DNA from: Candidatus Altiarchaeota archaeon | GTDB lineage: Archaea > Altiarchaeota > Altiarchaeia > IMC4 > SCGC-AAA252-I15 | Assembly (NCBI GenBank): GCA_043800255.1 | Contig: JAZDNF010000009.1 | Location: 1 to 64,000 of the forward strand | Direction of reading: 5' to 3' | DNA: 64,000 nucleotides | Shown: positions 28,465-33,500 of the stretch, piece by piece | How the letters are laid out: each line of letters opens with the position of its first letter | How positions within the stretch are numbered: the first letter of the stretch is position 1 | Position numbers and translations under genes: made by a program | Notes under the pieces: generated by a model | The model's input: only the letters and a program-made list of their open reading frames with translations | Told to the model about the DNA's origin: nothing | Databases searched by the model: none

Positions 28465-29231
28465 AAGCGCTGAGAGGCATTTATGCATTATGGTACAGGG
28501 AGTTCAAGGTCTTCCAGAGGGAAAAATCCAGGGTGGTTGCATCTATCGTGAACCCGATGCTTTGGTTTCTTATAGTAGGTGGCGGTATCGGCTCGGTGGT
28601 CTCGTTCAGCGGCATCAACTATCAGACGTTCATATTCCCAGGCATCCTAGTACAGTCCATACTCTTCTCCTCGATATTCTTCGGAGTGTACATCGTCTGG
28701 GACAAGAAGATAGACTTTCTCAAGGAGGTTCTGGTATCGCCTTTGTCGAGGACTACGATATTCGTAGGGAAGATGCTCGGAGGCTCGACTGACACCCTCA
28801 TACAGACGTCCATATTGATGTTCTTAGGTTTCATCTTTTCGAGAGTGGGCATGATGGAGGGCCTCCAGCTCACTCCGCTATCCATGCTCATATCAGCTGC
28901 GTTCCTCTTCATGACAACTGCTGGAGCGGTCAGCATAGGGCTTATAATAGGCTCGCAGATGGAGAGCATCGAAGGCTTCCAGCTTGTGGGCAGCTTCGTC
29001 GTGTTCCCCATGTTCTTCCTCTCCGGCGCCCTCTTTCCAATAGACAACCTGCCCAAGTGGCTGGCCCCGTTCGTATACTTGGACCCGGTGACATACTCGG
29101 TCGACGGCCTAAGGGGAGCCCTCCTGGGAGCCTCCACCTTCCCCATCATCTTCGACTTCACGGTCATCACAGTATTCTCAGCGCTGATGGTAATAATCGG
29201 CACCTACGCCTTCAAGAAGATGAAAATCTGA
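28461..29231 (+). CDS. ABC-2/DrrB-type permease
   Basis: Six TM helices, PMFFLSGALFP, DPVTYSVDGLR. Confidence 0.9.
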   Translation: MKALRGIYALWYREFKVFQREKSRVVASIVNPMLWFLIVGGGIGSVVSFSGINYQTFIFPGILVQSILFSSIFFGVYIVWDKKIDFLKEVLVSPLSRTTIFVGKMLGGSTDTLIQTSILMFLGFIFSRVGMMEGLQLTPLSMLISAAFLFMTTAGAVSIGLIIGSQMESIEGFQLVGSFVVFPMFFLSGALFPIDNLPKWLAPFVYLDPVTYSVDGLRGALLGASTFPIIFDFTVITVFSALMVIIGTYAFKKMKI

Positions 29232-29257
29232 GGGGCAAACCATCACGAACATCCGTA

Positions 29258-29265
29258 TTTTTAAA
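29258..29265 (+). promoter_or_regulatory. Putative TATA box for the leader/leuA transcript
   Basis: TTTTTAAA ending 27 nt upstream of the leader ATG at 29292. Confidence 0.45.
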
Positions 29266-29291
29266 CTAGTCTTACATTATATTGTATCAGA

Positions 29292-29387
29292 ATGGGTTCC
29301 TTTGTGTATCAGACGGTTGGTTTCGAGGATTTCGTTAGTGGGAACCCTCTTCAGTTGCTGTTGCTATTGCTTAGGCTGCGAGAGTAA
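29292..29387 (+). CDS. Putative leucine-sensing leader peptide (31 aa)
   Basis: MGSFVYQTVGFEDFVSGNPLQLLLLLLRLRE*; Leu codons TTG CTG TTG CTA TTG CTT at 29355-29372, directly upstream of leuA. Confidence 0.7.
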   Translation: MGSFVYQTVGFEDFVSGNPLQLLLLLLRLRE

Positions 29388-29405
29388 GCTTAGCTTATGT
29401 CTCGC
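29378..29405 (+). promoter_or_regulatory. Hairpin overlapping the leader stop codon (candidate attenuator element)
   Basis: gcgaga-g-taagc-tta-gctta-tg-tctcgc, followed by an A/T-rich tract. Confidence 0.55.
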
Positions 29406-29456
29406 GCGAACAGGATTATTATATTACTTTAGTTTACACATTATTTGGTGTTCGAC

Positions 29457-30932
29457 ATGACAAAAAAGATAAAAGTGTTCGATACGACGCTCAGGGACGG
29501 GGAGCAGACGCCGGGAGTCGCGTTAACCCCTGAGAAGAAGCTTGAGATAGCTAAGGCTCTGGATGAGCTTGGCGTTGACATCATAGAAGCAGGGTTTCCC
29601 ATAAACTCCGAGGGCGAGTTCAACGCGGTCAGGCAGATTGCGAGAGAGGTTGACACTACAGTATGCGGCCTCGCAAGGGCCTTGAAGCCTGACCTTGACA
29701 GGTGCATTGAAGCGGAGGTTGACTTAGTCCATGCTTTCATATCCACTTCACCGCAGCATCTCAAGTATCAGATGGAGAAGACGGAGGATGAGGTGTATGA
29801 GATGGCGGTGGATGCAGTACAATATGTGGTAGACCACGGCCTCCCATGCCTTTTCTCGCCTATGGATGCCACTAGGAGCGACATCGACTATCTTATAAGG
29901 GTGTGCAAGGGCGTTGAGGAGGCTGGAGCCAAGATCATCAACATACCTGACACTGTCGGAGTCATGTACCCGTCCGCCATGAGAGAGCTCATCTCGAAGG
30001 TGAGGAAGGCCGTGAAGGTTGACATCGACGTCCACTGCCATAATGACTTCGGGATGGCGGTCGCTAACACGCTGGCTGCTGTAGAGGCCGGCGCCAACCA
30101 GGTTCAGGTGGCAGTCAACGGCCTCGGGGAGAGGGCAGGCAACGCAGACCTGGAGCAGGTTGTGATGGCCTTGAAGGTGTTGTACGGCAGGGAGACGAAC
30201 ATAAGGTATAAGAACATCTACGCCACCAGCAAGCTTGTTGAAAGGCTGACAGGAGTCAGAGTCATGCCCAACTTCCCGATAGTGGGGGACAACGCGTTCG
30301 CTCATGAGTCAGGCATACACGTTCACGCAGTATTGAAGAATGCTGAGACCTTCGAGCCCCTGAAGCCTGAGATGGTCGGGGCGAGAAGGCGCATCGTCCT
30401 CGGAAAGCACGTTGGAGTCCATGGGATAGAGGCGAAACTGAAGGAGCTGAAGATCAGGGTCAGTCAGGAGCAGCTGATGGAGATAACGAAGAAGGTTAAG
30501 GACCTCGGGGGAAAGGGCAAGAGGATTGTGGAGGAGGATCTTGTCGCCATCGCAGAGGACGTCACCGGGAAACTTCCGAAGGAGAAGAGGGTTTTAGAGC
30601 TCATAGACTTGAAGCTGACTTCGAAGCTGAACAAGAACCCGGTGGCAACCGTAAAACTGAAAGTTAGGGGCAAGCAGAAGGAGGCCACTGAGGAGGGTGT
30701 AGGCCCTGTGGACGCCACACTGAACGCGATAAGAACTGCCATAGGCGACAGGAAGATAACCTTGGAGGAGTATCATCTTGACGCGATAACCGGCGGCTCG
30801 GATGCATTAGCTGATGTCACAGTCAGAGTCGCCAAGGGAGCGGATGTGACCCTGGCCAGGGGAGTCCACGAGGATGTGGTCATGGCGAGCATCATCGCCT
30901 TCATAAACGGTTTAAACAGGCTGCTCAAATAG
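29457..30932 (+). CDS. leuA: 2-isopropylmalate synthase
   Basis: DTTLRDGEQ, EAGFP, CGLAR, INIPDTVG, HCHNDFG, HESGIH, C-terminal regulatory domain (GVGPVDA); these motifs fit LeuA better than CimA. Confidence 0.82.
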   Translation: MTKKIKVFDTTLRDGEQTPGVALTPEKKLEIAKALDELGVDIIEAGFPINSEGEFNAVRQIAREVDTTVCGLARALKPDLDRCIEAEVDLVHAFISTSPQHLKYQMEKTEDEVYEMAVDAVQYVVDHGLPCLFSPMDATRSDIDYLIRVCKGVEEAGAKIINIPDTVGVMYPSAMRELISKVRKAVKVDIDVHCHNDFGMAVANTLAAVEAGANQVQVAVNGLGERAGNADLEQVVMALKVLYGRETNIRYKNIYATSKLVERLTGVRVMPNFPIVGDNAFAHESGIHVHAVLKNAETFEPLKPEMVGARRRIVLGKHVGVHGIEAKLKELKIRVSQEQLMEITKKVKDLGGKGKRIVEEDLVAIAEDVTGKLPKEKRVLELIDLKLTSKLNKNPVATVKLKVRGKQKEATEEGVGPVDATLNAIRTAIGDRKITLEEYHLDAITGGSDALADVTVRVAKGADVTLARGVHEDVVMASIIAFINGLNRLLK

Positions 30933-31101: not shown

Positions 31102-31854
31102 ATGGATTTATCAGGCAATCTGCTGGTGGTCAATTTTAAGACTTATGATGAGAGCACCGGCGACAATGCTCTTGAACTCTTGAGGGTCTGTGATAGGGTC
31201 GCTTCTGAGTCAGGCGTTGCCATAGTGGCTGTGCCCTCTCTCCTTGATTTGGAGAGGTGCTGCAGGACTGCCGCGGACGAGGGCCTCAATGAGGTAGTAA
31301 TCTTTGCCCAGCACGTTGATCCGAGCTTCAGGGAGGGGAAGCTGGGGAACAATACCGGCAGGATTCTGGCAGCGAAACTGAAAGAACTTGGAGTCCAAGG
31401 CTCACTCCTGAACCACTCGGAGAGGAAGCTCACCAGGAGAGCAGGCAATGACATGGACGTTAGCGAAATACAGGCGCGCGTCAGCGCCCTCAAGGCTGAG
31501 GGCCTGAAGTCGATAGTCTGCTGCGGGTGGGAGGCTCAGGACCTAACCATAAAGGAGGGCAAACTGATAGCAGCTTCGAATCCTGATTACATCGCAGTCG
31601 AGCCTCCGGAGATGATAGGAGGCGACGTCTCTGTCACGACAAAGCCTGAGCTGATAACCGGTTTCGTGAAAGCCATAATGGACGTGGACAGGGACATCAA
31701 AGTTTTGACAGGCGCTGGCGTTAAGAACGGGGAGCACGCCGCCAAGGCCATTGAGTTGGGCACCAAAGGGGTTCTCGTCGCCTCGGGCATAGTGAAGCCC
31801 AAGGATGGCGCCCAGGAGGAGGCTCTGACTGAGATGGCAGGAGGGTTGAAATGA
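31102..31854 (+). CDS. tpiA: Triosephosphate isomerase (archaeal type)
   Basis: VNFKTY, AQHVD, LNHSE, AVEPPE, GAGV, LVASG. Confidence 0.92.
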
Positions 31855-33500
31855 GGTCTGACATTATAAAAAAGGGGGTTGAGAGGGCGCCGAACAGGGC
31901 GCTGCTTTATGCTACAGGGATCACAAAGGAAGACATGCGCAAACCTTTCATCGGCGTCGCATCATCTTTCACTGACCTGATCCCAGGCCACATTGGAATG
32001 CGAGAGCTGGAGAGGGCCATAGAGAATGGAGTTTACGCCGGAGGAGGGCGGCCGTTCATCTTCGGGGTTCCGGGAATATGCGACGGCATCGCGATGGGCC
32101 ATGAGGGCATGAAATTCTCTTTACCCTCGAGGGAGCTGATAGCTGACGAGGTTGAGGCTATCGCAAGCGCCCACGCGTTGGACGGTCTCGTGCTGTTGAC
32201 GAACTGCGACAAGATTACGCCCGGGATGCTGATGGCAGCCGGCAGGCTTAATATCCCGTGCATAGTTGTCACAGCAGGTCCCATGTTAGGCGGTTATCAT
32301 AATAACAGGAGGCTTTCGCTGGTGAGGGACACCTTCGAGGCTGTCGGACTCTACCAGGCTGGGAAGATAAAAGCTGAGGAGCTGGCTGCGCTGGAATGCG
32401 AGGCCTGCCCCGGAGCAGGCTCATGCCAGGGGATGTACACCGCAAACAGCATGGCCTGCGTAACCGAGACGATGGGGATGTCATTGCCAGGCTGCGGCAC
32501 TGCCTTGGCGGGAACGGCAAAGAAGAAGAGGATAGCATTCGACTCAGGCAGGAGGATAGTAGAGCTCGTGCGCAGGAAGGTTACAGCGCGGAAGATCATA
32601 ACAAAGAATTCAATCTATAATGCGGTTGTCGTGGATAACGCCTTCGGCGGCTCCACCAATACTGCACTGCACATTCCGGCAATCGCGTACGAGGCCGGCG
32701 TGCCGATAAAACTTGACCTCTTCGATAAGGTCAGCAGGAGGACGCCGCATATCGTGAACATGCGCCCAGGCGGGGAGACGTTCATGGAAGACCTCGAGCG
32801 GTCTGGCGGAATCCCGGGAGTCTTGAACAGGCTCGCAGGCAGGCTGAAACCTAACACAACAGTCTCAGGCAGGAACATCAGGGAAATCGCCAGAACAGGC
32901 ATCATAGTAGAACCTGAAATAATCAGGCCTCTGAATAGACCCTACCATAAGGAGGGCGGGATGGCTGTCCTCAAAGGCAACCTCGCTCCTGACGGCTGCG
33001 TCGTCAAGCAGAGCGCTGTTTCACAGAAGATGATGAAGTTCACAGGCAAAGCCAGGATATTCGAACGGGAGGAGAACGCCATGAGGGCGATCCTCGCCAG
33101 AAGGATAAAAAAGGGTGATGTAGTGGTCGTAAGGTATGAGGGGCCGGCAGGCGGTCCAGGCATGAGGGAGATGCTGAGCCCGACCTCAGCCATAGCTGGC
33201 ATGGGACTGTCAGACTCTGTCGCACTGATAACGGACGGCAGGTTCTCAGGCGGAACCCGTGGACCGTGCATAGGCCACATCAGCCCTGAAGCCGCCAGGG
33301 GCGGGCCGATTGGAATCATAAGAGAGGGTGACAGGATTCACATTGACATCCCAAAGAGGAAGCTGGAGTTGCTCATACCTGCAAAAGAGTTCGCAGCCAG
33401 GATGCGAAACTTTAAACCGAAAAAGAAGAAGCTCAGAGGCTACCTGAAGAGGTATGCTGAGGCTGTCTCCTCAGCTGACAGGGGCGCGATTCTGGCGTGA
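31851..33500 (+). CDS. ilvD: Dihydroxy-acid dehydratase
   Basis: [28 protein letters not shown]. Confidence 0.95.

Follow-up and report, generated by a model that had tools for sequence, protein, structure and literature searches.

A leucine-rich leader in front of leuA

In this study, we describe a candidate translated leader of the leuA gene in a Candidatus Altiarchaeota archaeon, situated on a stretch of 64,000 nucleotides (nt) that we call the window (assembly GCA_043800255.1, contig JAZDNF010000009.1, positions 1 to 64,000 of the forward strand). The leuA gene, which encodes 2-isopropylmalate synthase, starts at position 29457 and was identified by a family-model scan (NF002085, 670.3 bits against a cut-off of 517). 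It is preceded by a small upstream open reading frame (uORF) that ends in a run of leucine codons, from which an earlier interpretation made from the letters alone, hereafter the sequence-only reading, had concluded that Leu-tRNA sensing controls leuA. An ABC-2 transporter gene pair lies upstream of the leader and ends at 29231, and no ORF of at least 80 amino acids overlaps positions 29232-29440 on either strand. Downstream of leuA follow a triose-phosphate isomerase gene (31102-31854) and ilvD (31851-33500). The genome, a metagenome assembly of an uncultured organism, encodes TBP, which identifies the host as an archaeon. From 5' to 3', the locus carries the following features:

29258-29265, plus strand: TATA box TTTTTAAA of the leader promoter, 34 nt 5' of the uORF ATG
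29292-29387, plus strand: leader uORF of 31 codons and a stop, probably leaderless (ATG at 29292, TAA at 29385-29387)
29294-29301, plus strand: 5' arm of helix P1, GGGTTCCT, beginning at the G of the start codon and predicted by RNAalifold on an unsupervised alignment
29340-29347, plus strand: 3' arm of helix P1, GGGAACCC, 7 nt 5' of the Leu run and pairing with 29294-29301
29355-29372, plus strand: six consecutive Leu codons, the presumed sensor codons (TTG CTG TTG CTA TTG CTT)
29378-29405, plus strand: hairpin P2, with outer stem GCGAGA/TCTCGC and inner stem TAAGC/GCTTA, carrying the stop codon TAA (29385-29387) in its 5' strand
29406-29456, plus strand: AT-rich spacer with a TATA-like TTATTATA (29416-29423) and a Shine-Dalgarno-like GGTG (29447-29450)
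29457-30932, plus strand: leuA, the presumed controlled gene (NF002085, 670.3 bits)

Both the TATA-like stretch and the uORF pointed out by the sequence-only reading were recovered by direct reading of the sequence and its translation. The uORF encodes MGSFVYQTVGFEDFVSGNPLQLLLLLLRLRE, and 69 nt separate its stop codon from the start of leuA. None of its codons 1-19 specifies Leu, against 8 within the final 12; four different codons are used among the six consecutive ones, and additional Leu codons are found at 29349-29351 and 29376-29378. The pairing that had been proposed for the GGGTTCC motif exists as described, GGGTTCC(T) at 29294-29301 being complementary to the P1 3' arm at 29340-29347. 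Folding likewise reproduced the proposed hairpin around the stop codon, with 12 pairs, or 14 in another fold that adds two pairs below (29376-29408), at -16.8 kcal/mol.

Recurrence and conservation in relatives

We found leuA loci in 40 relatives and read the upstream regions of the best 30. A uORF ending in GNPxLxLLLLLRLR[EA] and a stop was flagged in 14 of these 30 loci, the window included, to which L028 and the degenerate L025 were added by eye. A script parsed 17 leaders, on which the counts below are based, and skipped L028 and L050 for their interrupted Leu codons; we read these two by eye as further cases. Such a uORF was not flagged in the 13 loci L002-L014, which belong to families f5 and f7 and of which L002 has an upstream region of only 58 nt. 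The leuA of L005 follows a gene for ribosomal protein S8e, as do most others of the f5 loci, judged by a shared protein tail.

A covariance model of the 92-nt core (R1) has one match per genome in 18 of the 61 genomes of the phylum (E<=0.001), including window positions 29331-29415 at 83.3 bits; 15 of these 18 are training sequences that match by construction. The remaining three (in G002, G003 and G013) each have leuA downstream, and a degenerate copy lies 5' of leuA in G007 (E = 0.0018). Matches are confined to family f1 (14 of 20, plus the window's genome), f3 (2/2) and f4 (1/1), with none in f5 (0/22), f2, f6 and f7 (0/1 each), f8 (0/4) and f9 (0/8). Among the f1 genomes without a match, the contig of G005 ends 56 nt upstream of leuA, and in G006, G009, G012 and G017 (completeness 89, 71, 90 and 67%, respectively) only a leuA paralogue of 44-48% identity was found. 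Weaker matches of R1 (L052-L056, E 0.003-0.01) do not precede leuA but fall within low-complexity coding sequence or long open frames, and were discarded.

Furthermore, a pattern written in IUPAC code, combining the Leu run with a P2 arm, was scanned over the genomes of 185,579 species, where about nine occurrences would be expected by chance according to a hand estimate. Of the 24 stretches retrieved, nine were confirmed by the model, all from the same archaeal lineage. The other 15, of which 13 are bacterial, one is from Woesearchaeota and one from Undinarchaeota, score at most 19.6 bits with the model and are therefore regarded as chance matches; the latter two also lack a leuA context. Within the 1.75-Mb genome itself, the leuA leader is the only short intergenic ORF with an amino-acid run that matches the gene behind it. 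A Val-rich ORF (C7 293829-293951) and a Thr/Ile-rich ORF (C9 40074-40172) have no same-strand gene behind them, and none of the remaining run-bearing intergenic ORFs matches its own downstream gene; all of these we attribute to chance. As such, a search for cognate-codon-rich uORFs in front of the leuA genes of relatives, which the sequence-only reading had called for, shows that the element recurs, and it is confirmed that the observation is real and more than chance: the element recurs before leuA in relatives and is the sole cognate run among the short intergenic ORFs of its genome.

The Leu codons are what the leaders most visibly share. Leu accounts for 120 of the 204 pooled codons in the final-12 stretches, against 21 of 344 earlier in the uORFs and 6-9% in leuA itself. 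Run length ranges from 5 to 8 codons, with 3 in the degenerate L025, and each leader uses 3-5 different Leu codons, so that both the distribution and the synonymous mix first noticed in the window hold across all 17. An ATG-to-stop frame of 24-40 codons runs through the Leu run in 17/17, and the run, whose conservation had been named as a check, is thus kept in frame in every parsed leader. Codon choice differs from that of leuA, with TTG at 33% versus 15% and CTC at 1% versus 20%. CTT and CTC are usually decoded by one tRNA.

Upstream of the uORF, a match to TTTTTAWA of 6-8 of 8 positions is present at -30 to -38 from the ATG in 17/17 leaders. Across the genome, the distance of these boxes from the first ATG of long ORFs has its peak at -38 to -27, suggesting that this host commonly makes leaderless mRNAs. 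Since the TATA box of the leader falls inside this peak, the uORF is probably leaderless as well, with a transcript that would start at the AUG or a few nt before it.

Hairpin P2 covaries strongly. On alignment A2, 92.8% of cells are paired, where shuffles reach 82.4+-1.5 (0/500 attaining the observed value) and slid controls 30-48%, and 8 of 13 pairs are altered on both sides. The z score of the P2 duplex is below -2 in 16 of the 17 leaders. Its position relative to translation is constrained too: the base of P2 lies between -7 and +4 nt from the end of the Leu run, with a median of +2 nt. The stop codon, too, is part of the helix: its first base lies 7-12 nt inside the 5' strand, and the positions facing it vary in step with TAG, TAA or TGA.

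The peptide follows a different course. In the close pair L023/L024, the 5' part of the uORF is identical at 55 of 66 positions (83%), compared with 82% for third positions of leuA; identity amounts to 58/60 in the promoter, 30/33 from the Leu run to the stop, and 28/31 on the 3' side of P2. The peptide itself is thus not conserved and drifts at about the synonymous rate, whereas the reading frame, its Leu codons, both helices and the position of the stop are kept. Such a pattern of conservation would be predicted for a sensor ORF, and not for a functional small protein.

As for P1, 15 of the 17 leaders allow a contiguous helix of 7-11 bp in which part of the first 32 nt pairs with part of the 26 nt preceding the run, and RNAalifold recovers it on an unsupervised alignment of nine leaders. 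Within family f1, the 5' arm is found at two different positions of the uORF, both of which pair with the same 3' arm. In the two leaders of family f3, which are congeneric, both arms are entirely different from those elsewhere but pairing is preserved, AGAGCCAA with TTGGCTCT and GAGCACCAC with GTGGTGCTC, and one leader departs from the other by three compensatory double changes.

Several observations at these loci stand on their own. The leuA of the window is 72-81% identical to that of family f5 (and f7) and just 56-64% to that of its own family f1, and it does not have the N-terminal extension of 15-17 residues (MDQFWYDKK...) typical of f1, yet it sits behind an f1-type leader. This combination suggests that leuA was replaced downstream, with the leader being retained. 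In four relatives (L015, L027, L028 and L030), the ORF directly 3' of leuA resembles ilvD by eye, its start being like that of the window's ilvD, and the leader may govern ilvD too in some genomes. In L016, of family f2 (1143-1450), a Leu/Arg-rich uORF of 43 codons ends in SLLLRLRLKLRALLK; behind it come a T10 tract and, near leuA, a separate TATA-like box. R1 has no match there, and the leader may here have diverged or become decoupled. Finally, ARAGORN found 6 tRNA genes without introns in the whole genome and 36 with introns allowed, a mode that can miscall, so that most tRNA genes of this genome seem to bear introns. The tRNA-Leu anticodons seen are GAG, UAA and UAG, the latter two in genes with predicted introns.

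A putative leucine gauge and its output step

What could such a leader do? We consider it likely, with a probability of roughly 0.7, that it is a cis-acting, ribosome-read gauge for leucine, in which a translated Leu sensor regulates leuA. The role for Leu-tRNA in the control of leuA that the sequence-only reading put forward is supported by comparison, considering that the ORF, the TATA box, the Leu run and the stop within the hairpin are kept in 17/17. From 5' to 3', the order of elements seen in the sequence and its comparison is a TATA box, P1, a single-stranded linker of Leu codons, P2 with the stop codon, a spacer, and leuA led by a Shine-Dalgarno sequence. The first ribosome would load onto the nascent 5' AUG before P1 closes. 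With ample Leu-tRNA, it would reach the stop inside P2 and depart, after which P1 and P2 would fold. The P2-closed RNA would represent the state of low expression, with premature termination or cleavage taking place in the region of P2 and the spacer. Such termination would probably be factor-dependent (aCPSF1/FttA), because there is no conserved oligo-U tract. When Leu-tRNA is scarce, the ribosome would linger on the Leu codons, and once it has advanced to roughly the third or fourth of the run, its leading edge would hold the 5' strand of P2, leaving the hairpin unfolded and allowing the polymerase to continue into leuA. This output, through masking of P2 and a termination route, we propose tentatively, at clearly less than even odds. 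All dynamic steps and the sign of the switch are ones that we infer, masking of P2 being the simplest fit to the fixed geometry. The genome does encode aCPSF1/FttA, as found with a family model (899.8 bits). A second, weaker match to the same model lies outside the window on contig C7 (170319-171656, 327.8 bits, which is below the cut-off) and has three internal stops; this could be a broken gene or a paralogue, for instance aCPSF2.

Several results weigh against this picture, and they concern both the structures and the output. The leader RNA of the window folds no better than its shuffles (z = -0.94), and because this RNA alone folds unremarkably, the support is comparative in nature. For P1, between 3 and 437 of the 500 shuffles per sequence attain the helix observed and the duplex-energy z averages -0.59, so that its support is modest next to that of P2. 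Positions 29100-29600 contain no terminator-like site (hairpin and T run), which, together with the spacers of the relatives, agrees with the absence of a classical terminator noted from the sequence. No oligo-T tract is conserved after P2: among the 17 spacers, one has a T run of at least 5 and ten have runs of at least 4, at varying places, with none in the window. Eight segment pairs besides P1 and P2 have no excess complementarity (mean z between -0.09 and +0.29, with 0/17 below -2 for each), and constrained folds gave no recurring alternative structure. As there is no conserved alternative pairing among the five segments, the logic of a classical antiterminator is absent. Furthermore, if stalling took place at the first or second Leu codon, P2 would not be disrupted, which is why the sign of the switch is taken from physiology and not from structure. 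Two more points concern the AT-rich spacer, where a TATA-like match of 7 of 8 is present in 5 of 17 leaders, the window (at -41) included, and where L023 and L024 agree at 51 of the 53 nt preceding leuA, compared with 82% at synonymous sites.

These spacer results bring up the first of the alternatives, namely that the uORF and P2 form a separate small unit, either a gene for a hydrophobic peptide or a short RNA, and that leuA has its own promoter in the spacer. Besides the 7-of-8 boxes and the near-identity of the L023/L024 spacers, the arrangement of L016, with its T10 tract and separate TATA-like box after the uORF, speaks for such a division. Some constraint does seem to act on the spacer, and an element of another kind or a second promoter may reside there. 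Across the leaders, however, the TATA-like matches in the spacer range from 4 to 7 of 8 and are scattered from -9 to -127 relative to the leuA ATG without positional conservation, and the GC-rich spacer of L026 offers 4 of 8 at best. Thus, the caveat of a second promoter near 29416, which the sequence-only reading had raised, holds insofar as the box is present in the window, but its position is not conserved in the relatives and L026 is without it. Moreover, a box at -41 would start the transcript on or after the GGTG Shine-Dalgarno, a sequence that most relatives keep before leuA. A Shine-Dalgarno at this place, in a genome where TATA boxes are commonly located about 30 nt from the ATG, fits a long 5' untranslated region (UTR). 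A peptide gene is at odds with a sequence that, except for the Leu run, changes about as fast as synonymous sites. Independence from leuA is at odds with a single copy per genome that never lies anywhere but in front of leuA, and that has stayed there in the window although leuA is of another family's type. We consider a separate unit improbable. The spacers of L029 and L046 contain about 100 extra nt with long, very stable hairpins, which are possibly inserted repeat elements.

About equally improbable, and closer to the leucine gauge, is a variant with a different output step. Here, the stalled ribosome would cover the U-rich linker that separates P1 from P2. Left uncovered, this linker would be where aCPSF1/FttA or another RNase enters or cleaves, and the logic would be the same as that of TnaC blocking Rho. 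In all leaders the linker is single-stranded between the two helices, and the skew of its Leu codons towards the U/G-rich TTG and away from CTC would suit such a site, as would the presence of aCPSF1/FttA in the genome. Conversely, the idea leaves the fixed place of the stop in P2 and the strong covariation of P2 unexplained.

Translational attenuation, in which a structure hides the ribosome-binding site of leuA until a ribosome stalled on the Leu codons opens it, is less probable still. It would share its front end, a leaderless small ORF (sORF) with a run of cognate codons, with the mycobacterial poly-Cys system (10.1101/834739), the erm leaders being another model for such control, and the lack of a terminator backing a transcriptional output speaks in its favor as well. 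However, P2 ends 37-140 nt before the leuA ATG across leaders, and the segment with the spacer and ribosome-binding site has no excess complementarity to the linker, the P2 strands or the 5' region (0/17 with z < -2). When accessibility was compared in silico between no ribosome and a ribosome placed early or late on the run, the predicted probability that the Shine-Dalgarno and AUG of leuA are unpaired did not change with the mask (0.42, 0.42 and 0.40, means over 17 leaders).

Lastly, the Leu run might promote a +1 frameshift at CUU AGG C, after which translation would terminate over the start of leuA (ATGA), thereby coupling translation of leuA to Leu scarcity. The window alone suggests this: CTT AGG C, the +1 frameshift heptamer of yeast Ty1, is followed there by 29 open codons in the +1 frame, counted from the last Leu codon, up to a TGA that overlaps the leuA ATG (29370-29460). 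We consider it highly improbable, as none of the other 16 leaders has a shifted frame, +1 or -1, ending over the start of leuA. Most of these frames stop 10 to 192 nt before the ATG, and the +1 frames of L021 and L026 run 29 and 59 nt past it. The heptamer varies as well (AGA, CGG and GGA codons).

Comparison with known leader-peptide systems

To our knowledge, leader-peptide attenuation, the textbook form of regulatory coupling between transcription and translation, is regarded as bacterial. Archaea couple the two processes as well, with a eukaryote-like polymerase and a CPSF73-like termination factor. Bacterial leader-peptide attenuators include those of the Escherichia coli leuL-leuABCD operon, trpL, hisL and pheL, and leucine leaders are represented in Rfam as Leu_leader (RF00512). 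The present leader is like the leuL type in being a short ORF upstream of a biosynthetic gene with a run of codons for the amino acid of the pathway, as seen in the 8 Leu among its last 12 codons and leuA starting 69 nt on, as well as in its flanking RNA helices, in a stop codon at a fixed place with respect to a hairpin, and in the presumed signal, the speed of the ribosome on hungry codons. It is unlike the leuL type in its archaeal host, its TATA promoter and its probably leaderless uORF, and in having two non-overlapping helices without an antiterminator/terminator alternative and without a U run after the hairpin. Rfam yields no match at gathering score in the whole window, and for positions 29230-29480 one chance match to a snoRNA model (12.8 bits, E = 6) and no leader family. 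By eye, the strands of the internal loop of P2 do not carry the tandem G-A motif of a K-turn, and a K-turn was dismissed; a second small ORF from an ATG within the 3' strand of P2 comes to 4-11 codons by eye, is not conserved and was likewise set aside.

We know of no hairpin-dependent intrinsic termination by archaeal RNA polymerase, and therefore the output step must differ from that of the leuL type. A possible, though by no means assured, view of the whole is that of ribosome-mediated amino-acid attenuation in an archaeon that is built differently: a leaderless sensor ORF, a Leu linker clamped by two helices, and a single ribosome deciding whether the stop-bearing hairpin folds and leads to factor-dependent termination or cleavage of the aCPSF1/FttA type. 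If this is true, the speed of the ribosome serves as a metabolic signal in Archaea too. The missing U-run terminator and antiterminator would then point to a new link between the ribosome and the archaeal machinery of transcription or RNA decay, because the bacterial output parts are missing. At about 170 nt, the leader element is self-contained and can be moved to a tractable archaeon, which makes the proposal directly testable.

This would be a bacterial-style control in a domain for which we found no report of a leader-peptide attenuator in full-text literature (Creative Commons papers in PMC, and bioRxiv), in accordance with the view of the sequence-only reading that amino-acid leader attenuation is not established in archaea. 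The excerpts of two papers bearing on the subject either treat attenuation in general terms with bacterial references (PMC13158618) or name archaea in the reference list only (PMC2965389). Leaderless sensor ORFs have been described in bacteria. For Deinococcus deserti, PMC4007540 gives predicted leaderless leader peptides, and according to 10.1101/834739, a ribosome stalled on the poly-Cys sORFs of mycobacteria, which are leaderless, blocks a structure that sequesters the downstream ribosome-binding site. The leuA leader is unlike the latter in that neither complementarity to the ribosome-binding site nor a change in its accessibility was seen in silico, and in that those systems are bacterial. 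It is like the bacterial leaderless sensory sORFs in combining a tract of cognate codons, no Shine-Dalgarno of its own and an operon behind, the start at the 5' end being predicted here from TATA spacing. As such, the bacterial leaderless sensor ORFs (PMC4007540, 10.1101/834739) are its nearest published analogues.

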